Below, one piece after another: positions 2,529 to 39,969 of a stretch of DNA of 41,689 nucleotides (position 1 is its first letter; every line of letters begins with the position of its first letter). The notes beneath the pieces were generated by a model, which saw nothing but the letters and a program-made list of their open reading frames with translations, searched no databases and was not told the origin of the DNA. The stretch comes from Candidatus Norongarragalinales archaeon (GTDB lineage: Archaea > Micrarchaeota > Micrarchaeia > Norongarragalinales > SBBD01). Made by a program: the position numbers and the translations under genes. The stretch spans positions 1 through 41,689 of the forward strand of contig DATDZF010000027.1 in NCBI GenBank assembly GCA_035288785.1, written 5' to 3'.

Positions 2529-4052
2529 ATGCGAGTGATCAGAATGAACCTTATCTGGGTGTATGAGGACCACAACACCGACCTGTTCCCGTTCTATTAT
2601 TTCATCGACCACTGGGTTTACGTCCCAAAGCTTATCAAGAACAACATATCGGAAAAGTTCGTCGTATTTTCCGCTGGCACCGTCCAATACTATGTCGACA
2701 AGAAGAGCTACCCCAAGGTCGGCATGGAGGTTTTCGAGTACATATTCAACAAGGGCGGGATAAAAAAAATCGGCCGCAAGGTTGATGAAGGCTGCAGGAA
2801 AATCCTGGAAATTTCAGGAAGGCTAAAGGGCGCAAACTTCCGGCTGATGCCGGTAAGGAAGCTGATTAGCCTATATGCGGAATACGAAAAGGAAATGAAC
2901 GAGCTAAATGACTGGGGTACGCTTTATGGCGCAATGGAATTCGGGGAGGAGGTGCTTTCCACAAAGGGGCTTAAAGAGCAGCTTGCCTTCCTTGCAAAGA
3001 AACATTCCGTGAAGGAAGCGCCGGAGCATGCGATGGCGGTCTTGATGGCGCCGAGGAAGGGCGCGTTCATGAGGAAGATGAAAAGCGATGTGCTAAAACT
3101 TGGACTTAAGATATCCAAAAGGAGGCTCCCGAAACTATTTTCCGGTGATGCGTCTGCAATTGAGAAGCGGCTATTAGGTTATCCGGAAATCCTCGGGGAA
3201 GTGGAAAAGCTAAGGAAGGATTACGAATGGATCAATTACGGCTACCAGGGGCCTTTGATGGGGCTCGATTATTTCATCTCGCAGGTAAAGCAGGTGTTGC
3301 AGGGGGATGTGGAAAGGGAACTATCCCAGTTTGAAAGCGAATTCGCAAGGCTGAATGAAGCGCAAATGCGGCTTGAAAGGCGGTTCCATATTGGCGGGGC
3401 GCTTAGGCGCAGGTTCGAGGTGCTCCGGGAGCTCTCATACCAGAAATTCTACCGGAAAGAGGCGCAGTTCCTTGCATTCCATGCAGTTGAAGGGCTGCAG
3501 ATGGAAATTGCAAGGAGATTGGGCCTAAGTCTTCAGCAACTTAGGTATTTTGCATTCGACGAGGTAATGGCAGCGCTTAGGGGAAGCACCGGCCTTAATG
3601 CAAACCTTGCAAATGAGCGCATGAAGCTTTGCATTTATTATTTCAAGGATGGAAAGCACCGCGTCATTTCCGGGCGGGAAGCGCTCCGCTGGATGCGCTA
3701 CCTTCCAAAACGCAAGGAAATCGCGAAAACCGACGAGCTGAGGGGCGATTGCGCCTCTCCCGGAAAGGTGCAGGGAAGAGTCAGGATTGTGATGAATGCA
3801 AAGGACATTGTAAAGGTGCAAAGGGGAGATGTGCTGGTATCGTTTTCTACGAACCCCCAGATGGTGCCAGGGATGAGGAAGGCGGGCGCAATTGTGACTG
3901 ATCAGGGAGGCGTAACCTGCCATGCGGCAATTGTATCACGGGAGCTGAAAATTCCGTGCGTAATTGGCACCAAAGTGGCCTCAAGAGTGCTTAGGGATGG
4001 CGACAGGGTAGTGGTGGACGCAACTAATGGAATCGTGAAAAAAATTAAATAA
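2529..4052 (+). CDS. PEP-utilising-enzyme mobile domain protein, paralog 2 (helical N-terminal region plus swivel-His domain)
   Basis: C-terminal RKAGAIVTDQGGVTCHAAIVSRELKIPCVIGTK. The roughly 400-aa N-terminal region is homologous to paralogs 1 and 3. No GGKxxN ATP-grasp or TIM-barrel PEP-binding motifs seen. Confidence 0.8.
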   Translation: MRVIRMNLIWVYEDHNTDLFPFYYFIDHWVYVPKLIKNNISEKFVVFSAGTVQYYVDKKSYPKVGMEVFEYIFNKGGIKKIGRKVDEGCRKILEISGRLKGANFRLMPVRKLISLYAEYEKEMNELNDWGTLYGAMEFGEEVLSTKGLKEQLAFLAKKHSVKEAPEHAMAVLMAPRKGAFMRKMKSDVLKLGLKISKRRLPKLFSGDASAIEKRLLGYPEILGEVEKLRKDYEWINYGYQGPLMGLDYFISQVKQVLQGDVERELSQFESEFARLNEAQMRLERRFHIGGALRRRFEVLRELSYQKFYRKEAQFLAFHAVEGLQMEIARRLGLSLQQLRYFAFDEVMAALRGSTGLNANLANERMKLCIYYFKDGKHRVISGREALRWMRYLPKRKEIAKTDELRGDCASPGKVQGRVRIVMNAKDIVKVQRGDVLVSFSTNPQMVPGMRKAGAIVTDQGGVTCHAAIVSRELKIPCVIGTKVASRVLRDGDRVVVDATNGIVKKIK

Positions 4053-4114: not shown

Positions 4115-5596
4115 ATGCTCTGGACCAAAATCTGGACGCACCGGCCCTACTCCCCGGCGGTAATGAGCACTGTTGTAGCCGCAACCGTGCGGGGCTTTTC
4201 TGAAATAGTTCCGGAGAGCAAAATCAGGATGGGCGCAACCTATTGGGACGGGGGAATGGAGGATTATTTTTACCCAACAGAGGGGCTTGAACAAACAGTA
4301 AGATCGCTGAACGAGGAGATGATAAAAAATCCGGAGCGCATTTTCTCATTCTTCGAGGCGGCGCTTGAGAAGGCCAAAAAGCTAAACGAATTCAGCATGA
4401 AATATAAGGGAAAAGGCCTTTCCACATTTTCAGATGAAGAGCTTCTTTCCCACCTCAAGGAGTTTTCCAAGAGGTTTTATGATACCTACCAGAATGCCAC
4501 TTTAATGATAATGCTGGGCTACCAGCCGGAAACGCCGCTTTACTTCCAAATGATGGAAATCCTTCGGAAGAGGGCCGAATCCGAGCCGGAAAAGTTCGCG
4601 GAATACCTGCTGATCCTTACACGCCCCCCCAAGAGGCTAAAGACGCAGGCACAGGAAAGGAGGGCATTGGAAATTGCGCGGGAAGCCAAAAAGAAGGGGC
4701 TCTTGGAGGGGGAAAAAATCGCTTTTGTCTTTGCTGGCGAGCTCAAATCAATTGCAGAGGAATTCAAATGGCTCTCATACGATTTTTGCATATCAGCCGG
4801 ATGGGATGAGGGCCATTATGTGGGGCTTGTAATGGAAAAGCTTGGCGCCAAATTTGAGGACGAGATTTCGCTCATTGACAATTATGAGGAAAGGGTTAGG
4901 GAGGATTTTGATGCGATTTCGAAAAAGCTTGGCCTGAACAAGGCGGAAATTTCCATTTTCGATCACGTTGGCCAGATGGGGTATTACAAATGGGCGCGGG
5001 AGCATGAGTTCCAGCAGGCGATTTTCAATAACTTGCCAATCCAGGTGGAATTGGGGAAGCGTGCAGGGCTTGCCCCAAAAGAAGCCATGTTTTTGCTGCC
5101 TGAAGAAATCGAATTGGCGCTATCCGAACCACAAAAATTCAAGGAAAAGGCACTATTGCGCCTAAAGAACATGCTCTACATTGCGGATGGGCAAAAGACC
5201 ATTATCCTGGAGGGAGAGGAGGCAAAAAGGGAATATTCAAAATATATATTTTCCAGGGAAAAGATAGACATTTCACAAACGGAACTTAAGGGAATGCCTG
5301 CGTGCGCGGGGTTTGCAAGGGGAAAAGTCAGGATAATCAATACCTCGGCGGAGATGCACAAGATGCAAAAGGGGGACATCCTGGTTTCCGCGGCTACAAT
5401 GCCGGATCTGGTGCCGGCAATGAAGAAGGCAGCCGCGATCATAACCAACGAGGGGGGGATCATGTGCCATGCGGCAATAGTGAGCCGGGAACTCGGGATC
5501 CCCTGCATCGTGGGGGTCCGGAATGCGAATAAGATTTTGAAGGATGGGGATGAAGTGGAAGTGGATGCGGCGAAAGGGACAATAAAGAAGAAGTAG
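4115..5596 (+). CDS. PEP-utilising-enzyme mobile domain protein, paralog 3
   Basis: C-terminal KKAAAIITNEGGIMCHAAIVSRELGIPCIVGVR. Architecture is collinear with paralog 2. SD-like GAAGGT lies upstream of the ATG. Confidence 0.8.
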   Translation: MLWTKIWTHRPYSPAVMSTVVAATVRGFSEIVPESKIRMGATYWDGGMEDYFYPTEGLEQTVRSLNEEMIKNPERIFSFFEAALEKAKKLNEFSMKYKGKGLSTFSDEELLSHLKEFSKRFYDTYQNATLMIMLGYQPETPLYFQMMEILRKRAESEPEKFAEYLLILTRPPKRLKTQAQERRALEIAREAKKKGLLEGEKIAFVFAGELKSIAEEFKWLSYDFCISAGWDEGHYVGLVMEKLGAKFEDEISLIDNYEERVREDFDAISKKLGLNKAEISIFDHVGQMGYYKWAREHEFQQAIFNNLPIQVELGKRAGLAPKEAMFLLPEEIELALSEPQKFKEKALLRLKNMLYIADGQKTIILEGEEAKREYSKYIFSREKIDISQTELKGMPACAGFARGKVRIINTSAEMHKMQKGDILVSAATMPDLVPAMKKAAAIITNEGGIMCHAAIVSRELGIPCIVGVRNANKILKDGDEVEVDAAKGTIKKK

Positions 5597-13118: not shown

Positions 13119-13126
13119 TTTATATA
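13119..13126 (+). promoter_or_regulatory. TATA box (TTTATATA) for the giant surface-protein operon
   Basis: Consensus archaeal TATA in a 338-bp AT-rich divergent intergenic region, about 63 nt upstream of the ATG at 13189. Implies a leader of about 40 nt containing GAGGAGGG. Confidence 0.5.
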
Positions 13127-13188
13127 CTTCTTGTCCCTAATTAGTAGTAACATAATTGTGGGCATAGTTTGTTTGAGGAGGGATAGCT

Positions 13189-16100
13189 ATGAATGGTCGG
13201 ATTATTGGTCTACTCGCATTGATCTTGCTTGCGGCAATGATCACTAACCTTAATGCGACCTATCCGCCGGAAAGCTGTTTGGATAAAATCAACAACGATC
13301 CAGCATATGGCGATCCTAAAATTGATTGCGCCGATAGGCAAAGCGGCGGAGTAGGCGCGCTTACCTGCCCTGCAGGATCTTATCATCCCGATGCGTGCCC
13401 AAATGGGGAAAGCCCATTTTGCGTGCCAGGCCAGGACGATTATGACATGGTTTACAAGGCAGGGTGGATCTGCCCCTCTGGAGCAAATGTGCAGCTGGAG
13501 CTTGGGGAGGAAGAGTATAGGCAGATGACGCCTGAAAGTGGGGCTATTTCTCCTGAAAGCTATTACGGTGACGAAACAGCCGAATCAGATGAGATAGATA
13601 GCTCCTATTACTATTATTACGATTATTACGAGGAGCAAACCACAACTCAAACAACCACCATCGAAACTACTTATGGCGAGAGCGGGGCGGGCTTTGGATC
13701 GGAAGATGGACAAGAAGGTACAATCAACGGAGTTTCATACTCATACCCTTCAGACATGGAAGTTGCAGACCAAGGCATCGAATACCCGGCATATGAACCG
13801 GACTTTGGTTCCGGGGGCTATGAGGGCTACAATTACGATGAATCCGGCTACAATTACGAGGGAAGGTGGCATCTGCAGCAGGAATCCTACTTCCCGCTTT
13901 GCGGCGATGGGGTTTGCAGCTATGGTGAGGGGTGCTATTCGGATTGCGGGCCCCTGAATTCGTACAATAATTACAACTACAATTATTTTGATTATTACGA
14001 TTACGGATACGCTTACGGCTATTGCTATGTGAATTCGCCAACCTACGCAATTGCAGGCGACCGCGTACCAATCCAGGTCGTATTCAATGGTTATGCGCCA
14101 TATTCGGTGCAGGTAGATTGCGGCGATGGCGGCAGCACTATCGCTTACAGGAATGGATATTACAGCTATGGGAACGTGATGTATGCATATTGCCATTATA
14201 CGTATGAGGGCATTTTCTTCCCAAGCGCATATGCTTCCGGCACCTCGTGTTATTCGGATCAAATTATTGTTAGGAACAGGGGGAGCGGCGGAGGCGGGGG
14301 CTATTACTACCCAACGCCAACACCTACTCCACAAACGAATACCGGCAGGCCCATGGTGAACCTGCTCTACCCAACAGGCGGCGAAATATTTGAGGCAGGA
14401 GAGCGCATTGGCATAGAGTGGGATGGAACCGGCATAAACAATTACAGGGTGCTTTATTCCACAAATGGCGGGCTAAGCTGGCAGGTGCTGCAGGCGGACC
14501 CGTATTATTCCACATCCGTCAGGTGGACGGTGCCAAACCTTGACATCAACGACCTGAGAATTAAGGTTGAAGGCCACAGCGCAACGCACAGCCTTGTTGC
14601 CTCGGATACTTCGGGGTATATCGAAGTGGTAGGAAGGGCGGCCATATCTCCGACCCCTTATCCGACAAACTACCCAACTCCGACGCCCGGAACTCCGGAA
14701 TGCGCGCTTACTGCGTTCCCTTCAGCGCTGCAGGAGGGCGAAAGCGCCGTTGTGACGGCAAACTATTATTCACTTGCAAGGTCGCCGAACACAATTTCAA
14801 TTGATTGCGGAAACGGCCAGCAGAAGAATGCGGTGGACTGCTTTGGAACCACTGGAAGCTGCGCGGAATTTTGCAATTACCAGGGCAAGGGGACCTTTAC
14901 TGCAAAGGCGATTGCATCAGGCACGGCCTGCGCCCCTGTGCAAATAACAGTCAGCGAAACATCTGCTGAGAAATGCACCGATGGGACATCGTTTGGCGAT
15001 TGCTCGGAACAGAAACCGAAATATTGCGATGACGGGATATTGGTAGATAGGGCAAGCATCTGCGGCTGCCCCTCGGGAAAGATTGCCAGCGGGAATAGGT
15101 GCATTGAACCCTTCGGGAGCTGCACCACAGCAGTCAGCCCCCCAACCGTAAGGGCGAATGAACGGGCAACAGTTAGCATTGATTATGAGGGCATACCCCT
15201 CGGCACCGGGACGGCCCAAGTAATTTGCGGCAATGGCGATCTGGAAAGCGCTCGCTGCACACGCGCAAGTGAGCTGAGCGGCAGCTGCACCGCAGAATGC
15301 GTTTATGGGGAGGAAAGCTATTACCCGAAGAAATACGCCGTAGGGGCGAAGGTTAAGGGGATTTCATGCAGCTCTGCAAATGTGCAGGTAAGCGCGCCTT
15401 CCGAAACAACCGGAACCCTTCTGGCAAAGGTGTCGGAATGCGTTGGCGGGGATGTGATCGAGCACGCAAAGGTGAGGATCCAAAATAACGAGGATTTCTA
15501 CACCGATTCGAACGGCCAATTGAAGGTTTCATTGGAGCCAGGCGCCTACAATTTGGAGGTGTCAAAGCCGGAATTCAACGGCCAAAGCGCGAGCGTCCAA
15601 ATCAAGAAGGGGCAGATATCGACATCCGAAGTGTGCCTTAAGCCCGCGGGCTGCAGCATTTCAGCGGAACTTGTAAGGGTGCCAGATACGGATGACTCAA
15701 ATCCCGTACTGCTTTACCAGATCAGGATCACTAATAATCTCAATTCTGAGAACGAAATTTCCCTTTCGTACTCATCTGCATTCCAGATAGAAGGAGACCA
15801 GCTCGTTGTGATTGGGGCTAAGGAATCGAAAATTGTGAACGTGCTGGTACGTGCGGAAGGGGCAATTGTGGGAAGGAGCTATGGGATGGTCGCAATAAAA
15901 GGGGAGGGAGATTGCGCAAAGAACATCGAGCTTCCAATCAGCATCGTTGGGGGCCTTAGTTTGGAGCTCCAGCAGCACGACAAGGAATCCTTCGCGGATA
16001 GGAAGGTATGTTTTGATTTCCTGGTAAGGAACCGGGGCGAGAACGAAGGGGTCGTAACCCTGAACTTCGAGGGGGATTTCGAAGGCGAATTCAACGTGCC

Positions 16101-18654
16101 CCAATTCTTCCTGACAAGCAGGGAAATAAGGGACGGATTGCAGTTCTGCGCAAATGTGCCCTCGGGAGAGAGCGGCTCGCATGCATTCACTATCAGCGCG
16201 CTTAGCCCAATTTCTGATGCCTACGGCAGCGTTGCCGTGAAAGTGCTGGATACGGGGGATTTCGAGACCGATATCGACGGCGCATGCATCATTGTCCATG
16301 ATTATGCAGAGCTATATCCGGTCACCATCACAAACGATGTCGCGGATGGCGATTATGCAGTGACACTTAGGGATAACGAGGCAAATGCGCGTGCGACCCC
16401 TTCGGTGCTCTACAATTTCAAGAAGGGCACAAGCCGCACGGTCTACATCTCCGCGGATCCTGACAATATAGACTACGGGGATTCATACATGCAGCTCGTA
16501 TTGAAGCGCGACGGGTCTGTTGCATTGCAGCAGGATGTTTGCATCGCATCCGCAACCAAGCGGATCGCAAGGAGGGACATCTTCTCGCAGCTTTCGCAGG
16601 GCACCCTGAATTTGCAGGCAGGCGCAAGCGCAAGCACAACCCTGACCATCAGGAACACGGGCACGAGGACAGATGACTATTTCATAAGGGTGCAAACGCC
16701 CCTTAGCGTAAGCATCTCGGAGAGTTCGTTCACATTGGATCCGGAGGAGGAGAAGAAGGTTACGATCAAGGTTTCGGCTTCCGCAACAGAGGTCGCAAAG
16801 CGCTATTCCATCCCAATAAAAATTTATTCCGGAAGGGGACAGGGCGGCGTCATATATGATGGGCCATCGGATGGCGGCTACGGCGGGATCGGGACCGCAT
16901 TTGTGAAATGCGGCAATGGCAGGACCGTTTCATTGCAATGCGATGAGGGCTCCTCGAGCTGCTCTGCAGTTTGCAAATACACCGATACCGGAAGCTACAC
17001 CCTGCAGGCAAATGTGGGCAACGAGGAGTGCAGGGACAACAGCATCCGGGTGATTCCTGAGAATTCGAACGGATGCGCAATTTCAGCGGAATCAGTGAGC
17101 CGGGAAGACACAAACACAATTGTAAAGGTCAGGTACAGCCAATTGCCCCGCGAGCCGACAAACGAGGAAATCCTGATCTCGTGCGGCAATGGCAACAGTG
17201 CAACTGCGGACGATTGCGATGGGCTTTCGGGAACGTGCAGCGCAACATGCAGCTACAGCTCCAAGGGCACATTCACCATAAATGCAAATACGGGCGGGGT
17301 CACGTGCACTCCATCTGAAATCGAGGTAACAGGCGATTCGGAGTTCTGCTCCATCTCATCCCCCGGGCTTGCGGAAGAGGACGACACCGTGACAATAGGC
17401 CTCAAGTACAGGAATGTGTATTTTGGCGGGCAATTCTACCAGAACAGTTATTCTGGCGATACGGCCGATGGGTACTACGACAGCAACGGGATTTTCCGCT
17501 ATTACGACAGCAACGGCAACGGCTACTATGACAGCTACGGGAATTGGCACAGCTACGGCACATACTATTCCGGAAGCGGCGTGCTGTTGAAGACGGAAAA
17601 CCTGGTCGTGATCGTAGGGGGCGGCGGTGCTTCCGGCACAATCACCCCGGGCGATTTGCATCCGGATGCAGTGGAAGTCCGGCGCGTGCTTTCCGCAGAG
17701 CTTCCCTCAAAGGGGAAGGCAAATGTGGCGGCGACATTCAAGAACATGCGCGATTACAAGCTTAAGGACATCGCCCTTCTAGTTGAAGGATTGCCACAGG
17801 GCGTTACGCTTACGCAGGTGGCGCCATTCGAAATCGAGGCCGGTAGCGAAAGGACAATCTATTTCAGGCTGGAGGCAAATGGCGCAAAGGAAGGGGTTTA
17901 CCATCCAACGCTCACCCTCAGGTTTGATTCGCAAAGCGTCCAGAAGGAATTTGAGCTCAAGATTGCGCCGGAAACCGAAATCCTGAAAGCCGAGATAAAA
18001 ATATTGGGAGTCGAATATGCGCAGGAAGGAGGCAGCGCCATCGCCCGCCTTAGCTTTGAGGTAACAAATAAGGAAGGGGGGCAGGTCCAGCTATCGCCGA
18101 TCTTCCGGGACATGCCGCAGAATTGGAGCGCGCAAGTCGATCCTTCCCTTGGCGTCATCAATGCCGGGGAAACGCTTCAATTCAACGCCAACATTACCGC
18201 AAAGGAATACGAGCAGAAGAGCTACACGCTCCTTCTCGAGCTTAGGAGCCCAGATGGAAGGAGGTATTCCGAGCCGGTGGCAATTGAATTCCAGAAGCTT
18301 GGCATTTTCAGCGGCCTGTTCACATTCTTTGGGGCACTAGGGCCGCTGCAGGTGCTGGTGATCCTGGCAATCCTTGCACTCGCGGTATTTGCAGTCACTT
18401 CCCGCGAGAAAGGCAAGGAAAAGGATGAGGATGATGGTGGCCCATCGGAACGCCTAAAGAGCATAAGCGAGGAAATAAGGCCAATGAAGGGGAAACAGAC
18501 AACTTTGCTTGATGAACGCAAGTACAAGAAGAAGGGGGGCGCCTACGAGGCAACCGAGGAGATAGAATCCCCCGAATACATTGAAATGGACGATGCGGAT
18601 GTGACCGACGAGGATGCCCTGAAAACCCCGCCGGAAGACGAGGAAGACGATTAA
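13189..18654 (+). CDS. giant secreted, C-terminally membrane-anchored surface protein (1821 aa): Cys-rich PKD-like modules, BNR/Asp-box domain, CarboxypepD_reg-like domain, CARDB/NEW3-like sandwiches, Tyr-rich tracts
   Basis: Signal peptide MNGRIIGLLALILLAAMITNLNA. Five xxCG[ND]G...GSCxxxCxY...G[TS][FY]T modules. STNGGLSW Asp-box (14458-14481). TLTIRNTGTRTDDY..FTLDPEEEKKVTIKV NEW3/CARDB pattern. TM helix LQVLVILAILALAVFAV followed by an acidic tail. GAGGAGGG SD before the ATG. Confidence 0.85.
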   Translation: MNGRIIGLLALILLAAMITNLNATYPPESCLDKINNDPAYGDPKIDCADRQSGGVGALTCPAGSYHPDACPNGESPFCVPGQDDYDMVYKAGWICPSGANVQLELGEEEYRQMTPESGAISPESYYGDETAESDEIDSSYYYYYDYYEEQTTTQTTTIETTYGESGAGFGSEDGQEGTINGVSYSYPSDMEVADQGIEYPAYEPDFGSGGYEGYNYDESGYNYEGRWHLQQESYFPLCGDGVCSYGEGCYSDCGPLNSYNNYNYNYFDYYDYGYAYGYCYVNSPTYAIAGDRVPIQVVFNGYAPYSVQVDCGDGGSTIAYRNGYYSYGNVMYAYCHYTYEGIFFPSAYASGTSCYSDQIIVRNRGSGGGGGYYYPTPTPTPQTNTGRPMVNLLYPTGGEIFEAGERIGIEWDGTGINNYRVLYSTNGGLSWQVLQADPYYSTSVRWTVPNLDINDLRIKVEGHSATHSLVASDTSGYIEVVGRAAISPTPYPTNYPTPTPGTPECALTAFPSALQEGESAVVTANYYSLARSPNTISIDCGNGQQKNAVDCFGTTGSCAEFCNYQGKGTFTAKAIASGTACAPVQITVSETSAEKCTDGTSFGDCSEQKPKYCDDGILVDRASICGCPSGKIASGNRCIEPFGSCTTAVSPPTVRANERATVSIDYEGIPLGTGTAQVICGNGDLESARCTRASELSGSCTAECVYGEESYYPKKYAVGAKVKGISCSSANVQVSAPSETTGTLLAKVSECVGGDVIEHAKVRIQNNEDFYTDSNGQLKVSLEPGAYNLEVSKPEFNGQSASVQIKKGQISTSEVCLKPAGCSISAELVRVPDTDDSNPVLLYQIRITNNLNSENEISLSYSSAFQIEGDQLVVIGAKESKIVNVLVRAEGAIVGRSYGMVAIKGEGDCAKNIELPISIVGGLSLELQQHDKESFADRKVCFDFLVRNRGENEGVVTLNFEGDFEGEFNVPQFFLTSREIRDGLQFCANVPSGESGSHAFTISALSPISDAYGSVAVKVLDTGDFETDIDGACIIVHDYAELYPVTITNDVADGDYAVTLRDNEANARATPSVLYNFKKGTSRTVYISADPDNIDYGDSYMQLVLKRDGSVALQQDVCIASATKRIARRDIFSQLSQGTLNLQAGASASTTLTIRNTGTRTDDYFIRVQTPLSVSISESSFTLDPEEEKKVTIKVSASATEVAKRYSIPIKIYSGRGQGGVIYDGPSDGGYGGIGTAFVKCGNGRTVSLQCDEGSSSCSAVCKYTDTGSYTLQANVGNEECRDNSIRVIPENSNGCAISAESVSREDTNTIVKVRYSQLPREPTNEEILISCGNGNSATADDCDGLSGTCSATCSYSSKGTFTINANTGGVTCTPSEIEVTGDSEFCSISSPGLAEEDDTVTIGLKYRNVYFGGQFYQNSYSGDTADGYYDSNGIFRYYDSNGNGYYDSYGNWHSYGTYYSGSGVLLKTENLVVIVGGGGASGTITPGDLHPDAVEVRRVLSAELPSKGKANVAATFKNMRDYKLKDIALLVEGLPQGVTLTQVAPFEIEAGSERTIYFRLEANGAKEGVYHPTLTLRFDSQSVQKEFELKIAPETEILKAEIKILGVEYAQEGGSAIARLSFEVTNKEGGQVQLSPIFRDMPQNWSAQVDPSLGVINAGETLQFNANITAKEYEQKSYTLLLELRSPDGRRYSEPVAIEFQKLGIFSGLFTFFGALGPLQVLVILAILALAVFAVTSREKGKEKDEDDGGPSERLKSISEEIRPMKGKQTTLLDERKYKKKGGAYEATEEIESPEYIEMDDADVTDEDALKTPPEDEEDD

Positions 18655-18665
18655 GGCGATCTGCA

Positions 18666-21600
18666 ATGCAATTGAGAATAATTTTGCTGGCCCTACTGGT
18701 ATTGCCCCTTGCGAGTGCATCGGCAATAATCCTGGATTCGACAGGGCAGGAGGCATGCGCAACGGACCAGCTGGTAATATCAGGTATATTGCAGAATGCC
18801 AAGTCCGTTGCAGACAAATACGATTTGAGCGTCACAAGCAAGGATGGGCTTTCGGCATTCGTTACCCCCAGTTTGGAAGTGGACGCATACGGAATTGCGA
18901 GATTCGACTTGTTCCTCTCGCCCGTTTGCCTCGATGCGGGAAGTTACGATTACGAAATTACCGCGGGCAGCGTCCGGGGCGAGGTAGTTTCTGAAAAAGG
19001 CAGCATCCAAATCAATAGCTGCGAGCTCATGGAGCTGCGCATCTCCCAGACGAAAACCGAGGTGTGCAACGGCGAATCAGCAAGCTTTGCGATTTCCGTG
19101 AAGAACCTTGGCAATGAGGAGCAGAACTTCACCTTGGGAACGGATTTGGAGGCGGGAACGTATACGCTCTCGAAGGATAAATTCCTTTTAAGGCCGGGTG
19201 CAGAGGGCAAGGCAACACTCAACCTGAATATACCCGCCAACCTTTATGCGCAGGGGATGCTCACATTCAAGGTTAGGTCGGAAAGCACCTACAGCTGCGG
19301 GAGCAACAGCCGCGAAGTGCAAGCTTCAATAAATGTCCGTAGATGCGATGGCGCGAAACTGACCGCCTTGCAGGATTTGCAGGTGCAAGCCAATACCAAA
19401 TCGGTTTGGAACGTCTTCATTGACAACCAGAAGACGCCAGATTCCTATGGCCTAGTACTGGAATGCGCGGATTTTGCTGCATTGCCAGTTGAACGGGTAG
19501 AGCTGGGGGAGCTTGAAAGCGCAAACATCAATATCCCAATTGCGCCAAGGCTCGAGGATGTGGGGGAATACGAATGCAGGCTTACCGCGACCTCGGAGAA
19601 ATTCAGCAAATCATATACCACAAATCTCAAGCTGAAAGTGGTGCAGGAATATGCGGTGAAACTTGAGGCACCTTCGCAAATCAAGGTGTGCATGGGGGAT
19701 GACGCTTTGATCAAGGTAAAACTATTGAATGCGGGCAAGGCGAACAAGTACGCTCTGGCGGCTCCGGGAGGGGAAGTGGCGCTTTCAACAGGCGAAATTA
19801 ATGCGGCTGAAAATTCCACGAATGAATTTGGCCTGGCAATCAAGGGCAACGCACTGGATGCGGGAGTGAACACGGTCGAAGTGGCCGTGAGGAGCCCGTA
19901 TGCCGCCGCAAAAAGCTCCACAAGGATAATCGTGGAGGATTGCTACAATTCCGCGCTTTCCGTATCGCCAAGGACAATTGAAATGTGCGCGGGCAACGGT
20001 GGCGACAATGTGGTTGTTAGGGCGGTAAATAAGGGAACCAGGGAGGATTCCTATGTGCTCTTTGTTGCAAGCAAACCGGGATTCGATACGCAGTTCTCTT
20101 CACAGGAAGCATTCCGGCTCGGGCCAGGGGAAAGCAAGGAAATCGAGTTGAAAGTGAATGCAAAGGAGGATGCTAAATCAGGTAATTACGAAATCGAGGT
20201 AAATAGCCGGGGAACTAATAGCGAGGAAAGCGCAAGCTTTTCTGTGAATGTGCTTCCGGTTAGCGTTTGCCATTCGCTAAAATTGGAGGTCGATGGGAAT
20301 TCACGGAGGACGGGCTCTGGCATTGGGAAGAGCTTTAGGATCAGCATAACCAACAATGGGCGGTTCAAGGAAAGGGCGGAATTGATATTGAAGGAAAAGC
20401 CCGCCTGGGCGTACATTACCCCCTCGTTCATAGAAGTGCTTCCGGGGACAAAGGAGGAAGCATTGATATATTTTGCACCGCCCCTAAACGAGGCGCTTGG
20501 CAATTACCCAATTGTAGTGGAGGCGCGGGGGAAATACCTAGAGCAAACTCTTGGCCTTAATGTCGAGGTAATCGCGCTGGAGGGTGGCGAAGGGCAGGAG
20601 GCAAAAATTGACCTTTCAAACGTGAAAATTCCAACAGATCTTGAAAGGGAAACTGAAACACCCATTGAAATAGACATATACAATTCAGGGGACGTTGACC
20701 TGCATAATGCAAGCATCCTATTCTCGGAGGCAGTATCAATTGTCGGGCAAAAGCCCTTTGATGTGGAGGCGGGGCAGAGAAAGAAGATTGCGCTTGTCGT
20801 TACAATTGGAAAGGAAGCCCCCGAGGATGTAATGAAAATTAAATTGGGAGTCTATGCGGCAGAAGGGTCCGCGGAAAAGGAGGTCACCATCAAGGCAGTT
20901 GAAAGCCGCCTTGATGTGGCCCAGAAGGAATCAAGGGAAGCCGAAGGCGGCTTTGATATCGCACTTGCCTTGAAAAATAACGGCGAGGAGGCCCTTAAGC
21001 TTAAGGCGCATTCGCTGGAAAATGCGAATTATTCCGAAACGGAAATCGGCTTGCAGCCTGGGGAGGAGAAGGAAATTAGGGTCAAGCTGCAGGAGGGGCG
21101 CGAAACGCTTGTGTTCGAGGACGAATTAAGCGGGAAAATATACCGGAAGAGGATAGAAGTAAGCGAAACGGGGGATATCACGGGCCTTTTCGTGGCATCG
21201 ATGGGCAGGGTGCTGCCGTTTCTGGTTGCGATAATTGCCGGCGCAATCGCGCTTTACCTGATAGTATCGAGGCGGGGAAAGATCGCAGAAAGGCTCGATG
21301 GAAAGAAGGGAGAGCTTGAGGGCGAGGATGAAAAGGGGCCTGAATTTTACGAGGAATCCGAAAGCGAGCCGGACGTTGCCGAGGAGAAAAGGGAGGAAGC
21401 GGAAGAGAACACTGCATTGGACAGGAAAGGGGAGGGGGATGGAATTGATGAGGGCGCGGATGGCTTGGAGGACGACATTGACAGGCATCACATTTTCTCG
21501 GCGGTTGCAGCGGGGAAAAAAGCGACTGTTAGAAAAAAGGCACCAGCGGCAGCGGAAAAGAAGGAAGCAAGCAAGGAGGGCAATAAAAAAACCATTGGTA

Positions 21601-21764
21601 AAATGAAACAAAAGCCATTGGTAAAAAGCCGGAAAGCCAGTAAGCAAAGCGCAGGCGGGGGGAGGAAAAACGCCTCAACGCAAACGGAAGGGCGGAGCCC
21701 GCACCCGATGCAGGATTACCACATCTATTCCGGGCCTGAAGCGAGATGGCATACCAATCAATAA
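18666..21764 (+). CDS. giant secreted, C-terminally anchored surface protein 2 (1032 aa), COG1470-like CARDB/NEW3 repeats with a long charged cytoplasmic tail
   Basis: Starts 12 nt after the stop of the previous gene. Signal peptide MQLRIILLALLVLPLASASA. Repeated units such as FAISVKNLGNEEQNFTL, VVVRAVNKGTREDSYVL..LGPGESKEIELKV and FRISITNNGRFKERAEL. TM LPFLVAIIAGAIALYLIV, then about 230 aa of E/K-rich tail. Confidence 0.85.
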   Translation: MQLRIILLALLVLPLASASAIILDSTGQEACATDQLVISGILQNAKSVADKYDLSVTSKDGLSAFVTPSLEVDAYGIARFDLFLSPVCLDAGSYDYEITAGSVRGEVVSEKGSIQINSCELMELRISQTKTEVCNGESASFAISVKNLGNEEQNFTLGTDLEAGTYTLSKDKFLLRPGAEGKATLNLNIPANLYAQGMLTFKVRSESTYSCGSNSREVQASINVRRCDGAKLTALQDLQVQANTKSVWNVFIDNQKTPDSYGLVLECADFAALPVERVELGELESANINIPIAPRLEDVGEYECRLTATSEKFSKSYTTNLKLKVVQEYAVKLEAPSQIKVCMGDDALIKVKLLNAGKANKYALAAPGGEVALSTGEINAAENSTNEFGLAIKGNALDAGVNTVEVAVRSPYAAAKSSTRIIVEDCYNSALSVSPRTIEMCAGNGGDNVVVRAVNKGTREDSYVLFVASKPGFDTQFSSQEAFRLGPGESKEIELKVNAKEDAKSGNYEIEVNSRGTNSEESASFSVNVLPVSVCHSLKLEVDGNSRRTGSGIGKSFRISITNNGRFKERAELILKEKPAWAYITPSFIEVLPGTKEEALIYFAPPLNEALGNYPIVVEARGKYLEQTLGLNVEVIALEGGEGQEAKIDLSNVKIPTDLERETETPIEIDIYNSGDVDLHNASILFSEAVSIVGQKPFDVEAGQRKKIALVVTIGKEAPEDVMKIKLGVYAAEGSAEKEVTIKAVESRLDVAQKESREAEGGFDIALALKNNGEEALKLKAHSLENANYSETEIGLQPGEEKEIRVKLQEGRETLVFEDELSGKIYRKRIEVSETGDITGLFVASMGRVLPFLVAIIAGAIALYLIVSRRGKIAERLDGKKGELEGEDEKGPEFYEESESEPDVAEEKREEAEENTALDRKGEGDGIDEGADGLEDDIDRHHIFSAVAAGKKATVRKKAPAAAEKKEASKEGNKKTIGKMKQKPLVKSRKASKQSAGGGRKNASTQTEGRSPHPMQDYHIYSGPEARWHTNQ

Positions 21765-21860
21765 GAGAAAGGGCCGCCACCGGCAAGGTGCGAATTCCAT
21801 CAATCCGTAATTTTGCGCCTTGAAAAATGGGCTTTTGGCGTTTTGCATGCCATCACAATT

Positions 21861-32558: not shown

Positions 32559-35027
32559 TTAGCCCCTTACGGTGTCCCTGTTCTCGTTGAGCCAGTTGAT
32601 CAACGCATTGCCGGCTTCCTTGGTGTCCGCTGCAGAATAGCCTGCAACGACCAGCTTGGTTGAGCCAAACACCTGCACGATCGGTTGGTCACCGGACTTC
32701 AGGTCAACTCCCGCCGCTTTTGCGACAGTGTTCACGATCTGTCCACCAACGACAACCAGGTTTGCAGTGTCGGACGCTTCAGAGTCCAGCACCACTAGCG
32801 GGTTAGACGCAGTGTTCAGTTCGGTCACAACAGCCGCATCCTTCACTGAAGGCTCCAGGAGGTCAATGCCGGTTACGTCGCCAGCAGAGCCGCCGGTCAC
32901 CTGCGCAGTGATGGAGTCCACCATCAAGGAGTAGCCGCCGCCTATTGTGTAGGGGTCGCCCTCCTTCAGGTTGACTTTTGCATCAGAGCCAGTCCCGCTT
33001 GATCCGGATGCGCCGGATGTCAGCGTGAATCTTGCCTGAGCAACCTTCTTCGCGTAGCTGATGGTCGCCGATGACGAGCCAATGCCGGTGAAGATGTTGC
33101 CTCTGCGCGTGGTGTACTTGGGTTCCTTCGATGCGATGTTTGCCACCGTAGTGCCGTTATACCCTGCGGGATTGCTGTTGTCATAGCCGATCTTGTCAAC
33201 TGTAGTTGAGCCGATCGTGTTGACGAACTGGTCGAGGGTCACATCGTATAGGAGGTTCAGGTGGAAGTTGGTTGCAATTGCTGCCGAAGAGCCGTTGTTG
33301 GTCTCCGTCAACTCTGGGATTGCCACTAGAACGTTGGTTATGCCTCCTGAGTGGTTGTACGAGGTGTTGACAGACAGCACCGCATTCTCCTCCGAAGAGT
33401 AGTAATACGTGAGCTGCCCTGCGGTTGTGCTTGCATTGGAGTACGCGCCTGCGGCGGTTATGTAGAATACTTCGCCTGCCGGATGCGTTGTGTTGCCCGT
33501 TGCTTGCTCAAGCAATATGTATGCGTCGTTGACGGACCTGCTTCCGAACTGGAAGGCATTGCTCTTTCCGGAAACTATGCTGAGCACGTTTGAGGAAATC
33601 GCTGCGCCGTCATCGAGCGTCATTGCATATGACTTCAGGATGGAGAACGTCAGGGTGTCGTAGTCTACAGTTTCCAATCCGAGGAAGTTGAGCTTGTATC
33701 CTGGCATTCCCTTGATTACCTCAATGGATTCGCCCGGGTTCAACGTCTGGGAGATTGGGGTCTTGTAGGTCTGGTCGAGGTTGTTGTAGAGCTGGATTTT
33801 CGAGATTGCATCGGTAGAGCCAACGACCGCACTTATGATGTTGGAATACCAATTCTTGTGGGAGTCGCCGCCCGAAACTTCTGCACCGTTTGTCAGCACT
33901 AGCTGGCTCGAGTACAGCGAGACGTCGGCAATTCCTTGCTTTGCGAATGCGCCGGGGAAGACCTTGTTGACCTTCACCACGATGTTGTTCGCTTCTGCGA
34001 TGGTTGCGCTGTCGCTTTCTCCGAGGTATACCCTCTTGATGAGCACTCCATCCTTGTCGGAAACGTCGAACTGCGCCCTCTGTGGGGAGAACGCTGACAA
34101 GTCCTTCAGGGTGATGGTAAAGCCATCCTGGGTTGTAACGGATTCGTCGATGTTGAATGACTCCTTCCTGGTGATTTGCTTACCAAGCGTCACGGACGTG
34201 ATGGATCCGAACGTCGGGTTTGTATAGTCGAAGATGGTCCAAGTGTCGCCAAGGAACGTGATCTCGACGTTGCCCTTCTTGAGCATGTCGGAATCAGTGG
34301 TGCATGCGCCAGCGGACGTGTTCTTCGAGGTGTCCAAGCAAAGCGGAATTGGATCGGAAAATACGACCTCATAGCCGGTCTTTGCATACTGTGCCTGCAC
34401 AGCCTTTGCGGTTTCGTCATACTTCACGTATGCGAACGCATAGACTTTCTGCTCCTCCTTGGTGTTGGTTGAGCCCTTCGGGTAAGTGATCTTACCATCA
34501 GAGGGCATGCCTGCCGCGGGTGCGACGATGGACGTTAAGTCCTTCGTGATTACCTTGGGGCCGAGGTTGGAACCAAATGAGGTATTTCCGGAACCGAATC
34601 TGGATGTTTGCGCCGTGCTCCTGTTGCTGTCAACGGAGAAGTCGAGGTCGTCCTCGATGTACGCCTTCATCTCGTATGCGGTTGCCGGGTTCACTCCTGG
34701 CGTAGTTACTGTCAAGCCCACTTCCTTGTCCGAAAGTTCCCCTCCGGAGCCGGAAGATCCGAGCTTGTCGGTGTTCAATACTTGCACTGTCTGCGTCTTG
34801 TACGCAAGGTTACCCAGGACTGCCGCGATATTTGCTCCAACCACGACATCTACTGGCTGCGCCTTGCCTCCAATCACAACCTTCACTTGGGGCTCCCCGG
34901 CTGAGAAGAAGGGGAATGTTCCAACGCCGGCTGTGTCGACGCTGACTGCAGCGCCCACAAACGCCGCGCCCATCATGGCTGCGCCGGTTGCGATTGCCGC
35001 AATTCTCTTCACATTCATACTTTTCAT
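32559..35027 (-). CDS. S-layer protein (Methanococcales-type N- and C-terminal regions)
   Basis: Signal/N-terminus MKSMNVKRIAAIATGAAMMGAAFVGAAVS. T/S/N/G/V-rich with only 2 Cys. C-terminal VVGGQIVNTVAKAAGVDLKSGD..LVVAGYSAADTKEAGNALINWL. AGGTGA SD 5 nt before the ATG, long leader and a strong pyrimidine terminator. Confidence 0.75.
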   Translation of the reverse strand: MKSMNVKRIAAIATGAAMMGAAFVGAAVSVDTAGVGTFPFFSAGEPQVKVVIGGKAQPVDVVVGANIAAVLGNLAYKTQTVQVLNTDKLGSSGSGGELSDKEVGLTVTTPGVNPATAYEMKAYIEDDLDFSVDSNRSTAQTSRFGSGNTSFGSNLGPKVITKDLTSIVAPAAGMPSDGKITYPKGSTNTKEEQKVYAFAYVKYDETAKAVQAQYAKTGYEVVFSDPIPLCLDTSKNTSAGACTTDSDMLKKGNVEITFLGDTWTIFDYTNPTFGSITSVTLGKQITRKESFNIDESVTTQDGFTITLKDLSAFSPQRAQFDVSDKDGVLIKRVYLGESDSATIAEANNIVVKVNKVFPGAFAKQGIADVSLYSSQLVLTNGAEVSGGDSHKNWYSNIISAVVGSTDAISKIQLYNNLDQTYKTPISQTLNPGESIEVIKGMPGYKLNFLGLETVDYDTLTFSILKSYAMTLDDGAAISSNVLSIVSGKSNAFQFGSRSVNDAYILLEQATGNTTHPAGEVFYITAAGAYSNASTTAGQLTYYYSSEENAVLSVNTSYNHSGGITNVLVAIPELTETNNGSSAAIATNFHLNLLYDVTLDQFVNTIGSTTVDKIGYDNSNPAGYNGTTVANIASKEPKYTTRRGNIFTGIGSSSATISYAKKVAQARFTLTSGASGSSGTGSDAKVNLKEGDPYTIGGGYSLMVDSITAQVTGGSAGDVTGIDLLEPSVKDAAVVTELNTASNPLVVLDSEASDTANLVVVGGQIVNTVAKAAGVDLKSGDQPIVQVFGSTKLVVAGYSAADTKEAGNALINWLNENRDTVRG

Positions 35028-39327: not shown

Positions 39328-39969
39328 ATGCATTTCTCCCTTTTTTCAGGAAAGCCATCAGGGCATAGCCGCCTCCTGATGCTTGCCCGGAAATATTGCC
39401 CAGACCTGAGGGGCAAGCGGGTGCTGGCTGGAGGGGATGACACCGGCAAGCTGACCGATTACCTGATTGCGGAATTTGGCGCAAACGCCCACGGTATTGA
39501 TAAGAGGAATAGCCGTTTCAACAGCAAGCTATCGGCCGTGAGGCAAAATCGCGTCCTACAAGGGGACCTGCTAAATCTGGAGCAGCATTTTGGGAACGAG
39601 GGATTTGATGTCATCTTTACCCACGACGTTGTAAGCACTGCAGGCCAAATCGTGGGCAGGTGGCCACGGCTTTGGCGCCATAGCGCCTCATGGAGGCAGA
39701 ATTGGAGCGCAAAAAGGGTCGCATTGTTCGACAGGATGGACCGCAGGGTCAGGAATACAATTGCTCCACGGCTTCATGCGGCATTGCTAAAGCAATTGCG
39801 CCCGGGAGGCATAATCATCCATACGGTCAGGCAGAGGGAAGAGCTCGGAATGACCCAAAGGAGATTCGAAAGGCTAGGCTACCGGGTGCTTCACCTTACG
39901 GCAAACGAAGCCGTGCTATCACGGGCGAACGATCCCCCTCCCCGGATTGAAGCGTTGTCCGAACGCTAA
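39328..39969 (+). CDS. class I SAM-methyltransferase-like protein with degenerate motif I
   Basis: RVLAGGDDTGKL (degenerate VLDxGxGxG), GIDK, QGDLLNL, FDVIFTHDVV and LKQLRPGGIIIHTV occur in the canonical order. GTGAGG SD present. Stop overlaps the next start (TAATG). Confidence 0.45.
   Translation: MHFSLFSGKPSGHSRLLMLARKYCPDLRGKRVLAGGDDTGKLTDYLIAEFGANAHGIDKRNSRFNSKLSAVRQNRVLQGDLLNLEQHFGNEGFDVIFTHDVVSTAGQIVGRWPRLWRHSASWRQNWSAKRVALFDRMDRRVRNTIAPRLHAALLKQLRPGGIIIHTVRQREELGMTQRRFERLGYRVLHLTANEAVLSRANDPPPRIEALSER

Follow-up and report, generated by a model that had tools for sequence, protein, structure and literature searches.

Two adjacent genes, here called P1 and P2, occupy 8576 of the 41,689 nucleotides of the analysed stretch of DNA (the window; 20.6%, in line with the share of about 20% given in the preliminary description). 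The explanation that we tentatively favour, with a confidence somewhat short of even, is that their products may form a two-component complex on the cell surface, where P2 would be a constant pedestal and P1 a modular arm, probably serving contact or adhesion. The pair is regarded as a candidate two-part contact structure because it recurs in other DPANN archaea, and an adhesin or cell-contact role is plausible from the architecture of the proteins together with their taxonomic distribution, on which the case for it is built. The wider conserved two-gene cassette of DPANN archaea, to which P1 and P2 appear to belong, had been missed in the preliminary description.

The two open reading frames are co-directional and consecutive, as described before (Table 1); the distance between the P1 stop codon (TAA, 18652-18654) and the P2 ATG (18666) is, however, 11 nt and not 12 nt. 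They had been called an operon, and the genes indeed behave as one unit, being adjacent and co-directional at every related locus. The TATA box at 13119, the Shine-Dalgarno sequence and the downstream T-runs proposed earlier are all present as candidate signals. An A-rich, BRE-like AAAAGG, a putative promoter element read from the sequence, stands 5' of the TATA-box-like TTTATATA, and the T4 runs are located in the 126-nt spacer between P2 and a dCTP deaminase gene with a probable real start at 21891. A protein identical to P1 is found in the public collection (P0001, on a 58-kb contig). There was no reverse transcriptase among the ORFs scanned, and repeat pairs of at least 30 nt between the operon and other sites did not go beyond chance-level matches; with neither the enzyme nor a template/variable repeat pair, the locus was rejected as a target of a diversity-generating retroelement.

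Table 1. Coordinates of the features of the P1-P2 gene pair (positions in the window; aa, residues of the protein)
Feature	Position	Strand	Basis or remark
TATA-box-like TTTATATA	13119..13126	+	Read from sequence; candidate; 63 nt 5' of P1 start codon
Shine-Dalgarno-like GGAGG	13177..13181	+	7 nt 5' of P1 ATG
P1 coding sequence, 1821 aa, 196 kDa, pI 4.5, 52 Cys	13189..18654	+	
P1 signal peptide, aa 1-24 (MNGR, hydrophobic core, LNA/T)	13189..13260	+	Hydropathy; cleavage site inferred
P1 Cys-rich N-terminal head, aa 26-100, 6 Cys	13264..13488	+	Sequence
P1 low-complexity Tyr/Glu/Thr-rich linker	13489..14016	+	Indel hot spot
P1 Cys module 0, aa 277-362, degenerate CG[ND]G copy	14017..14274	+	AF2 beta, pLDDT 55-67
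P1 small beta domain, aa 388-484, single Asp-box-like STNGGLSW	14350..14640	+	
P1 Cys module 1 (aa 503-590), small Cys knot (596-644), Cys module 2 (643-737)	14695..15399	+	
P1 CarboxypepD_reg domain, aa 740-819	15406..15645	+	Pfam PF13620
P1 four NEW3/FixG_C-type Ig-like beta-sandwiches, aa 822-1215	15652..16833	+	AF2 pLDDT 65-90
P1 Cys modules 3, 4 and 5, aa 1236-1474	16894..17610	+	Sequence, orthologs, AF2
P1 membrane-proximal NEW3-like domain pair, aa 1475-1705, SGLF at end	17611..18303	+	
P1 transmembrane helix, aa about 1706-1737	18304..18399	+	Hydropathy
P1 acidic cytoplasmic tail, 84 aa, net -14	18400..18651	+	Composition
P2 coding sequence, 1032 aa, 112 kDa, 12 Cys	18666..21764	+	
P2 ectodomain, eight ~100-aa beta-sandwich domains	18723..21161	+	AF2 pLDDT 75-92
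P2 TGLF motif (aa 839-842) and transmembrane helix to about aa 868	21180..21269	+	Hydropathy, orthologs, AF2
P2 cytoplasmic tail, acidic half then basic half, 164 aa, predicted disordered	21270..21761	+	
Three T4 runs, candidate archaeal terminator (inferred)	21811..21844	+	At 21811, 21833 and 21841

Kyte-Doolittle hydropathy gave exactly two hydrophobic segments in each protein, namely the N-terminal h-region (residues 1-25) and a transmembrane (TM) segment at about 1706-1741 in P1, and residues 1-27 and about 838-871 in P2, where AlphaFold2 (AF2) built a helix at 840-877. Basic residues follow directly after the TM segment (SREKGKEK in P1, SRRGK in P2). From the hydropathy, the modelled TM helix and these Arg/Lys residues P1 and P2 are predicted to be type-I membrane proteins; the topology suggested before (signal peptide, ectodomain, one C-terminal TM helix, charged tail) is borne out by hydropathy for both proteins and by the AF2 helix for P2. 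Both would be exported by Sec, with presumable cleavage of the signal peptides, and each would be anchored by its single C-terminal helix, leaving the tail in the cytoplasm. An [ST]GLF motif, which is not a described sorting signal, is conserved before the TM segment; TGLF of P2 is invariant, as is its G840 in a 19-sequence alignment (A4). No PGF-CTERM-type NCBIfam model matched P1 or P2 (PACE-CTERM-PROT reached 36.7 bits against a cut-off of 110), and an archaeosortase-type C-terminal sorting signal (PGF-CTERM and relatives) was rejected, considering that 84 and 164 residues follow the TM segments. Relatives of the Aenigmatarchaeota type terminate directly after it.

As the preliminary description had proposed, the proteins were modelled: AF2 yielded all-beta, beads-on-a-string arrays of beta-sandwiches with low pTM (0.28-0.30) and good per-domain pLDDT, and whole-chain Foldseek and PDB searches with P1 and P2 returned only generic tandem-Ig arrays. 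Both proteins carry tandem Ig-like domains of the NEW3/FixG_C/CARDB type (PF10633, PF11614, PF07705). The eight domains of P2 (residues 20-117, 122-225, 230-326, 331-424, 429-530, 538-636, 658-745 and 749-832) include Pfam matches to FixG_C (46.3 bits, cut-off 25.6) and NEW3 (27.7 bits, cut-off 24.4), and in distant relatives CARDB and NEW3 reach 51.7 and 59 bits, respectively. Across seven orthologs P2 is indel-free and evenly conserved, and all 12 of its Cys are invariant. These are confined to domains 1-6, with none in domains 7-8; the earlier reading of P2 as almost entirely CARDB/NEW3-like thus holds for the sandwiches (Pfam, AF2), but not for the claim that every unit is opened by a conserved Cys. 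P2 would be the partner that stays constant, its eight NEW3/CARDB-type beta-sandwiches forming a rigid chain with six conserved Cys pairs, which if extended would measure about 30 nm.

P1 would be the modular partner, where a NEW3-like array and a membrane-proximal two-domain-plus-TM module like that of P2 would be supplemented by the CarboxypepD_reg domain and six CG[ND]G modules rich in disulfides, and further by a Cys-rich tip and flexible linkers with many Tyr. The Cys-rich head and the Tyr-rich tracts noticed before are visible in the sequence; the head (six Cys within residues 30-95) matched no Pfam family, is kept in five close orthologs and differs in P0006 and P0007. The linker contains a CGDGxCxxGExCxxDC motif (residues 238-254), also found in the upstream partner at locus L014. 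The predicted CarboxypepD_reg-like domain was recognized as PF13620 at 754-814 (33.3 bits, cut-off 32.3) and is present in 7/7 P1 family members (best E-value 4e-17), while Pfam FixG_C matched at 1151-1212 (41.1 bits) and NEW3 at 1623-1671 below threshold. Among the five "Cys-decorated PKD-like modules" of the preliminary description the Cys modules are real: there are five CG[ND]G copies and a sixth (module 5) interrupted by an inserted, disordered stretch rich in Tyr, with further Tyr-rich tracts elsewhere, and AF2 models them as beta-sandwiches of ~85 residues (pLDDT 58-86). Their PKD label, however, did not survive profile comparison: the Pfam PKD models (PF00801, PF18911) matched neither P1 at E<=1 nor an isolated module at E<=10, a 23-sequence Cys-module profile found no PKD chain among the PDB sequences, and hhalign against true PKD repeats from L017 and L015 gave a Prob of 0.8%, so that PKD identity was rejected at profile level. 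Similarly, the STNGGLSW motif (424-431) could be located, but not the Asp-box domain claimed with it (BNR 12.6 bits, cut-off 27); the surrounding ~100-residue domain is an insertion occurring only in P1 and P0002 and is missing in 5/7 orthologs, and with this single motif a sialidase-like BNR/Asp-box beta-propeller was rejected. P1 modules differ between lineages by whole-domain insertion or swap; P0006 and P0007 have a second CarboxypepD_reg domain in place of the Cys knot.

P1 and P2 are partly paralogous. The Ig array of P1 is homologous to residues 20-640 of P2 (hhalign Prob 96.8%, E 3e-10), its membrane-proximal pair is paralogous to P2 domains 7-8 (blastp E 6e-5), and the membrane-proximal modules are colinear including the TM segment (hhalign Prob 95.7%, E 9e-9, 214 columns). 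Through these modules the two proteins might associate into a heteromeric surface stalk, with P2 as pedestal and P1 projecting through and past the S-layer as a binding arm, which would touch another cell, the host or a matrix.

The close homologs of P1 and P2 all come from Candidatus Micrarchaeota MAGs, and the episymbiotic archaeon suspected earlier is accordingly a DPANN archaeon (Micrarchaeota). At all Micrarchaeota loci (L001-L012) the pair is adjacent and co-directional, and the same housekeeping neighbourhood surrounds it in at least six Micrarchaeota species. The comparison with DPANN genomes, also proposed previously, revealed that the pair recurs: the P2 profile collected 1724 cluster representatives at E<=1e-3, of which 132 remained at E<=1e-30, and all members with an organism name belong to DPANN (Micrarchaeota, Aenigmatarchaeota, Diapherotrites), the named clusters being few and most relatives metagenomic. 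The P2-like protein of L020 shares 52% identity with a protein that carries the label Aenigmatarchaeota. In 8/8 distant loci a large protein with CARDB, PKD or CarboxypepD_reg is encoded directly 5' of the P2-like gene on the same strand. These upstream partners have 514 to at least 1970 residues, with a signal peptide evident in the seven complete ones; those of L017 and L018 carry canonical PKD domains (243 and 202 bits) in a position architecturally equivalent to that of the P1 modules. In L016, L017 and L019 the upstream protein has no TM segment and its P2-like partner has one, therefore the large protein is implied to be held by the partner. Since in pairwise searches the similarity of P1 to the upstream partners of other phyla is limited to the CarboxypepD_reg region, and the P1 Ig-core and C-terminal-module profiles add weak matches to the L017 partner only, it is mainly P2 and the architecture that suggest P1 and P2 to be the Micrarchaeota version of a two-gene cassette recurring in DPANN. 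The pair evolves faster than the flanking housekeeping genes (48-60% versus 65-87% identity), and faster divergence is typical of exposed surface proteins.

The true S-layer gene had been placed elsewhere in the window, and it was found at 32559-35027 on the reverse strand (822 aa; PF05124 63.8 bits, TIGR01564 S_layer_MJ 61.4 bits), its family being that of the experimentally shown Micrarchaeota S-layer protein (bioRxiv 10.1101/2021.04.28.441871). P1 and P2 matched neither of these two profiles, and were rejected as S_layer_MJ-type S-layer proteins. This S-layer protein has a signal peptide and no C-terminal TM segment, as would suit an alternative we consider unlikely, though still worth serious attention: P1 and P2 could be an envelope scaffold which tethers or spaces the S-layer protein above the membrane and binds no foreign cell. 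The model for it is found in Sulfolobales, where SlaB anchors SlaA. The gene for a large outer protein is followed here, as in slaA-slaB, by that for a smaller one anchored by a C-terminal TM, both being beta-sandwich-rich, and the large partner is anchor-less, like SlaA, in the three DPANN loci mentioned above; but both P1 and P2 have a TM segment and no coiled-coil stalk, Micrarchaeota have their separate S_layer_MJ-type protein, and neither the profiles A1 and A2 against PDB sequences (E<=1) nor Foldseek against the PDB revealed any SlaA or SlaB entry. The cassette lies within housekeeping genes of a syntenic core region, yet not beside the S-layer gene (~11 kb away, opposite strand). The even, indel-free conservation of P2 would agree with an anchor too, and uniform conservation with a core-genome position fits a structural envelope role equally well as an adhesin; nevertheless P1 and P2 (about 52% identity) diverge faster than the S-layer protein (66%), their extended lengths (P2 as given above, P1 over 50 nm) exceed the needs of a spacer, and the distal P1 modules are swapped between lineages, which is unexpected in a lattice anchor.

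Quite improbable is a pair of independent generic coat proteins, derived from an old tandem duplication and having no specific partner or ligand, which would provide protection, hydration or surface charge. Although the partial paralogy, the strong acidity of both proteins (pI 4.5-5.0), the profile searches, which detected neither a catalytic domain nor one known to bind ligands, and the frequency of C-terminal-TM Ig-like arrays in archaeal envelopes (PMC5898192) agree with it, the adjacency persists at 22-28% P2 identity and throughout the distant loci, and its retention over such deep divergence therefore favours functional coupling over a duplication relic. Anchor-less upstream partners also speak against a generic coat, as does the strong depletion of N-glycosylation sequons in P1 (2 observed, 13.5 +/- 3.3 expected), odd in a passive glycoprotein coat.

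The length of the P1 tail given previously (about 85 residues, acidic) was nearly exact and 35% of it is D/E, but that of P2 is considerably shorter than the about 230 residues described, and it is bipartite: residues 869-945 form an acidic half (net -17), whose basic counterpart spans residues 946-1032 (net +15). The suggestion that the tails couple to the cell interior is weakened because they are predicted disordered (AF2 pLDDT below 35) and clade-specific: identity beyond the juxtamembrane stretch is 8-22%, the P1 tail is retained only in part by close orthologs and almost lacking in P0006 and P0007, the tails of distant Micrarchaeota pairs have about 10-30 residues, and the median of 144 P2-like representatives is 11.5. 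Signalling receptors with contact-sensing ectodomains and tails relaying the signal to a cytoplasmic partner are thus very improbable, since in spite of the tail lengths, the complementary charge of the P1 tail and the P2 basic half, and close-clade motifs (RLKSI..EI, KQTTLLDE.KF and YIEMD in P1; SRR..RLDGKKG in P2), the tails are predicted disordered and nearly missing in most of the family, signalling domains such as kinase, HAMP or PAS were not found by profile searches of P1 and P2, and the adjacent ATPase is the housekeeping PINA branch-migration enzyme and not a secretion or signalling ATPase.

Bap/LapF/SiiE-class adhesins leave the cell by type I secretion and are retained in the outer membrane. 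The proposed P1-P2 complex would resemble them in its very long Ig-like repeat chains holding a binding tip off the cell, and a weak NCBIfam match to adhes_GNV_Cterm (E 0.29) was seen; in contrast, P1 and P2 are predicted to be Sec-exported with a type-I TM anchor, have no calcium-binding repeat signatures and show no significant homology to this class. From the same phylum, the cultured Micrarchaeote Mia14 has huge secreted PKD/CARDB proteins, for which interaction with host cells was proposed (Golyshina et al. 2017, PMC5498576), and these are likewise very large beta-sandwich proteins taking a sizeable share of a tiny genome. They were, however, reported to be strain-specific, to stem in part from lateral transfer and to contain fused beta-propellers (PMC5498576), whereas P1 and P2, compared by description, are a core, syntenic and conserved two-gene cassette without propeller. 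The arCOG02487/COG1361-type "predicted S-layer proteins with an Ig-like domain" (Makarova et al. 2015, PMC5898192) are also secreted or anchored archaeal NEW3/CARDB-like Ig proteins, but their MoxR ATPase/vWA/DUF4350 neighbourhood is missing around P1 and P2, membership being judged by description. Finally, as far as the account of Jing et al. 2002 cited in PMC5498576 goes, the PKD and YVTN proteins of the Methanosarcina surface layer, read as cell-cell interaction proteins, are comparable PKD-type beta-sandwich mosaics on an archaeal surface, from which P1 differs in that its Cys modules match no PKD profiles and it has no beta-propeller.

Host recognition and attachment of DPANN archaea is an open question, and cryo-ET of DPANN co-cultures made contact sites visible, with their proteins unnamed (PMC11329633). 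The cassette discussed here is conserved and syntenic, combines a constant anchored with a modular partner, and occurs in Micrarchaeota, Aenigmatarchaeota-like and Diapherotrites sequences; if it is a contact device, it would offer a defined target pair to antibody work, proteomics, subtomogram fitting and "host-range" comparisons between genomes. If P1 and P2 anchor the S-layer instead, this would explain how the Micrarchaeota S-layer protein, which has no TM segment, is attached, a question that came up with its discovery, and on either reading about 20% of the window moves from "hypothetical" to a testable envelope complex. A bolder and rather doubtful extension is that the P1-like/P2-like pair is an ancient, DPANN-wide surface organelle, in which the invariant P2 Ig-stalk would present an exchangeable, lineage-specific P1 arm setting the choice of host; if true, it would be the general means of attaching to hosts that has long been sought in DPANN archaea.

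Both open reading frames of the gene pair were found where the preliminary description had placed them, together occupying 20.6% of the window; they are indeed close and consecutive, with a gap of 11 nt instead of the 12 nt stated there. [quoted passage not shown] The C-termini are regarded as cytoplasmic because basic residues come after each helix. The P1 tail is acidic as had been described (84 aa, net charge -14), but that of P2 measures 164 aa and not about 230, and its two halves differ in charge, the first being acidic (net -17) and the second basic (net +15).

The previously noted motifs around the pair, TTTATATA at 13119, GGAGG at 13177 and three T4 runs at 21811-21844, were all found and may have regulatory roles; they fall in true intergenic DNA, since 21891 is the most likely start of the dCTP deaminase gene. 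A promoter and terminator scan of the window, which was bacterial and therefore ill-suited to archaea, returned counts equal to the shuffle expectation, and neither tRNA genes nor Rfam families were found in the window. The exact sequence of P1 is present in the public protein collection (P0001, on a 58-kb ENA contig). For P2 no 100% match was returned from this collection, the best being 58-60% identical, which suggests that the source annotation either omits the gene or has another call for it.

P2 (112 kDa) consists of eight beta-sandwiches of about 100 aa (AF2 pLDDT 75-92), the TM helix and a disordered tail (pLDDT <35). Its proposed CARDB/NEW3-type composition was borne out, FixG_C and NEW3 exceeding threshold, and the conserved cysteines said to open each unit are real, 12 of 12 being invariant in seven orthologs, but they are confined to domains 1-6. 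The Ig core of P1 aligns with P2 20-640 (hhalign Prob 96.8%), and P1 1503-1742 aligns with P2 657-872 (Prob 95.7%), colinear across two domains and the TM helix; judged from their sequences, P1 and P2 are partly paralogous. Immediately outside the TM helix both carry a [ST]G[LF]F motif, SGLF in P1 and TGLF in P2; TGLF is invariant among P2 orthologs, and the Gly of the motif even in the 19-sequence alignment with distant relatives. Aenigmatarchaeota-type relatives have instead ITG..ERPLWK followed by the TM helix and the protein end, resembling a signal for sorting or processing, of unassigned type.

P1 (196 kDa, pI 4.5, 52 Cys) has a more complex architecture. Residues 275-1474 are all-beta in AF2, and since the domains are well modelled (per-domain pLDDT mostly 65-90), the linkers disordered and the pTM 0.28, the protein is predicted to resemble beads on a string. 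Self-BLAST of P1 for internal repeats gave no off-diagonal match, so the modules were identified by motif and alignment; the consensus of the Cys modules is C..P...V.V.Y...P...V.CGNG...A..C.G..G.C.A.C.Y...G.F.V.A...G..C..A.V.V. Among the domain names proposed earlier CarboxypepD_reg was confirmed, while the Cys modules, PKD-like by eye, were negative in every profile test run, and the Asp-box label did not hold either (BNR 12.6 bits against a threshold of 27). The Asp-box-like domain is an insertion present only in P1 of the window and its homolog P0002.

Hardly any DNA similarity exists among the six Cys modules, the best being 37 nt at 73% (15201 versus 16884), and their duplications are thus considered ancient and not recent recombination cassettes. 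The CGDGxCxxGExCxxDC motif of the P1 linker recurs in the large upstream protein of the distant locus L014 (blastp E 0.05), and that of L013 has a looser version. The P1 ectodomain (window 13258-18303) is strongly depleted in N-glycosylation sequons (N-x-S/T), with 2 observed versus 13.5 +/- 3.3 expected and none of 2000 shuffles reaching so low a count; the P1 homologs P0002-P0006 are likewise poor (0-4 versus 12-20 expected), P1 and these orthologs invariably have 52 Cys, and sequons are not depleted in P2 and the S-layer protein.

Coordinates of the gene pair, of P1 elements, of other window genes (nt unless marked aa) and of the large proteins encoded upstream of distant P2-like genes (loci L013-L020)
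Feature	Position	Strand	Length	Remarks
P1 gene	13189..18654	+	1821 aa	
P2 gene	18666..21764	+	1032 aa	
P1 signal peptide	N-terminal, first element			
P1 6-Cys head	aa 26-100			no Pfam family
P1 linker	after head			Tyr/Glu/Thr-rich, disordered; holds CGDGxCxxGExCxxDC (aa 238-254; 13900-13950)
P1 degenerate Cys module	aa 277-362			
P1 small beta domain	aa 388-484			one Asp-box-like motif
P1 Cys module 1, small Cys knot, Cys module 2	knot aa 596-644			in that order
P1 CarboxypepD_reg	aa 740-819			33.3 bits, cut-off 32.3
P1 four NEW3/FixG_C-type sandwiches	aa 822-1215			
P1 Cys modules 3, 4 and fifth module	after aa 1215			fifth interrupted by Tyr-rich insert
P1 two further NEW3-like sandwiches	aa 1475-1705			then TM helix, tail
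P1 SGLF	18310-18321			
P2 TGLF	21180-21191			
aCPSF-type beta-CASP nuclease; PINA/PRK13764	upstream of pair	opposite		
dCTP deaminase, RecJ/DHH protein, Band_7, CBS	downstream of pair			
S-layer protein	32559-35027	-	822 aa	
PEP-utilizers paralogs	135-701; 2529-4052; 4115-5596	+		
Membrane protein	35831-37798	-	655 aa	
TadC/T2SSF-type protein	39969-40907	+		
L013 upstream protein			724 aa	CARDB
L014 upstream protein	L014:6386-7930		514 aa	CARDB
L015 upstream protein			739 aa	PKD
L016 upstream protein	L016:1-5915		at least 1970 aa	CarboxypepD_reg
L017 upstream protein	L017:587-5896		1769 aa	PKD 243 bits, CarboxypepD_reg 101 bits, CARDB
L018 upstream protein			1575 aa	PKD 202 bits
L019 upstream protein	L019:2442-6914		1490 aa	CARDB, CarboxypepD_reg, PKD
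L020 upstream protein			639 aa	CARDB

The modelling and Foldseek comparison that had been recommended domain by domain was run with both AF2 models as whole chains against the PDB; it recovered beta arrays, but the matches were generic and gave no functional lead, being only tandem Ig/ASH/macroglobulin arrays (HYDIN/CFAP, alpha-2-macroglobulin, C5, titin, gp210) with TM-scores of 0.05-0.3. In PDB sequence searches with P1, P2 and Cys-module profiles, a GH20 Ig domain and carboxypeptidase D were the only matches other than chance ones.

The close homologs of P1 and P2 all come from Candidatus Micrarchaeota MAGs. Orthologs of P1 and P2 stand in this order in the Micrarchaeota loci L001-L003 and L007-L012, with the same housekeeping flanks wherever flanks are visible (the genome scan with alignment A1 covered the close clade only, 6 species), and two distant Micrarchaeota, with P1-like proteins 28-32% identical, retain the pair in another neighbourhood (L004/L005, L006). 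A P2-family profile searched against 1.84 billion proteins yielded 1724 cluster representatives when the limit was E<=1e-3 and 132 when it was E<=1e-30, most of them 570-750 aa long with a signal peptide, a C-terminal TM helix, Cys-framed NEW3/CARDB sandwiches like those of P2 and conserved motifs such as GPxWxYxxP and EExxxYxxPP. The few clusters with an organism name are all DPANN (Micrarchaeota/Micrarchaeia, Diapherotrites, Aenigmarchaeota), and these few give no sign of the ubiquity in free-living archaea that the preliminary description had named as a refutation; a full-length alignment of the L020 P2-like protein with one labelled Aenigmatarchaeota shows 52% identity.

A large protein is encoded directly upstream of the distant P2-like gene, on the same strand, in 8 of 8 loci, with an N-terminal signal in all seven complete ones. 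At L016, L017 and L019 this protein has no TM helix and its P2-like partner has one, which suggests that the large protein is retained only via its partner. These loci represent a subfamily with P2-like proteins of about 575 aa, and their TM-less PKD/CarboxypepD_reg proteins end in a short basic/hydrophobic peptide, e.g. ...RSLLDRVTALIPF.

Compared with their counterparts in five other Micrarchaeota genomes, P1 and P2 of the window show 48-60% identity; in the same comparison the flanking housekeeping proteins share 65-87% and the S-layer protein 66%. P2 orthologs are essentially without indels. In P1 whole modules are inserted or exchanged: some orthologs have gained the Asp-box domain, in others a second CarboxypepD_reg takes the place of the Cys knot, and the Tyr-rich linkers vary in length. 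Conservation of the long P1 and P2 tails is confined to the membrane-adjacent part; the pairs of distant Micrarchaeota have tails of only some 10-30 aa, and the median for P2-like proteins is 11.5 aa (n=144 representatives). A DGR or hypervariability mechanism was rejected, template/variable repeats and a reverse transcriptase having been looked for and neither found.

The neighbours of the pair in the window are archaeal housekeeping genes. A link to a secretion ATPase was also discarded, as the PIN-ATPase-KH protein encoded upstream is PINA/PRK13764, a housekeeping enzyme that stands outside the system. Elsewhere in the window, three paralogous ORFs have the C-terminal PEP-utilizers mobile domain as their sole Pfam match (85-92 bits); the two full-length 500-aa copies, whose N-terminal 420 aa or so belong to no family, stand in tandem, and L003 has the same tandem pair. 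The 655-aa membrane protein has N-terminal TM helices and a Cys-rich zinc-ribbon/RING-like C-terminal end, with no confident family, and near the window end a pilus platform protein of TadC/T2SSF type (41 bits) is possibly a further envelope or attachment component.

This kind of protein is already known, since large PKD/CARDB surface proteins were noted in a cultured Micrarchaeote, where a role in cell-cell interaction was proposed (PMC5498576), and 'predicted S-layer proteins' of NEW3/CARDB type make up an established class in archaea (PMC5898192). In the literature searched we found no description of a conserved two-gene organisation in which the P2-like partner stays constant through several DPANN phyla, of the Cys-decorated module family or of the anchor-less variants of the large partner; the cassette, absent from these sources, may possibly have been described elsewhere.

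The best-supported model, to which we would give slightly less than an even chance, is a heteromeric, membrane-anchored surface stalk, in which P2 would be the constant pedestal and P1 the binding arm. An interaction of P1 with P2 is suggested by their deeply conserved adjacency, by the shared proximal module and by the anchor-less partners in other loci.

The main rival, which we consider unlikely but ahead of the remaining ones, is a role of the P1/P2 complex as anchor or spacer of the TM-less S-layer protein. The true S-layer gene does lie elsewhere in the window, as had been claimed (PF05124 63.8 bits, TIGR01564 61.4 bits), and its product has a signal peptide and neither a C-terminal TM helix nor an obvious anchor; proteins of this family form the Micrarchaeota S-layer according to proteomics, immunostaining and freeze-etch EM, and the same paper explicitly raises the possibility of such anchoring or spacing (10.1101/2021.04.28.441871). 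That P1 and P2 are a passive coat is rather improbable, and a function as signalling receptor is very improbable.

In the stalk model P1 would be a modular, disulfide-braced arm extending past the S-layer, a reach that we infer from domain counts alone (about 30 nm for P2 and more than 50 nm for P1 if extended); in a Micrarchaeota co-culture the gap between the S-layers of symbiont and host is 11-16 nm (PMC11329633). We infer likewise the interaction of the two proteins and the last step, in which the P1 arm would bind something outside the cell.
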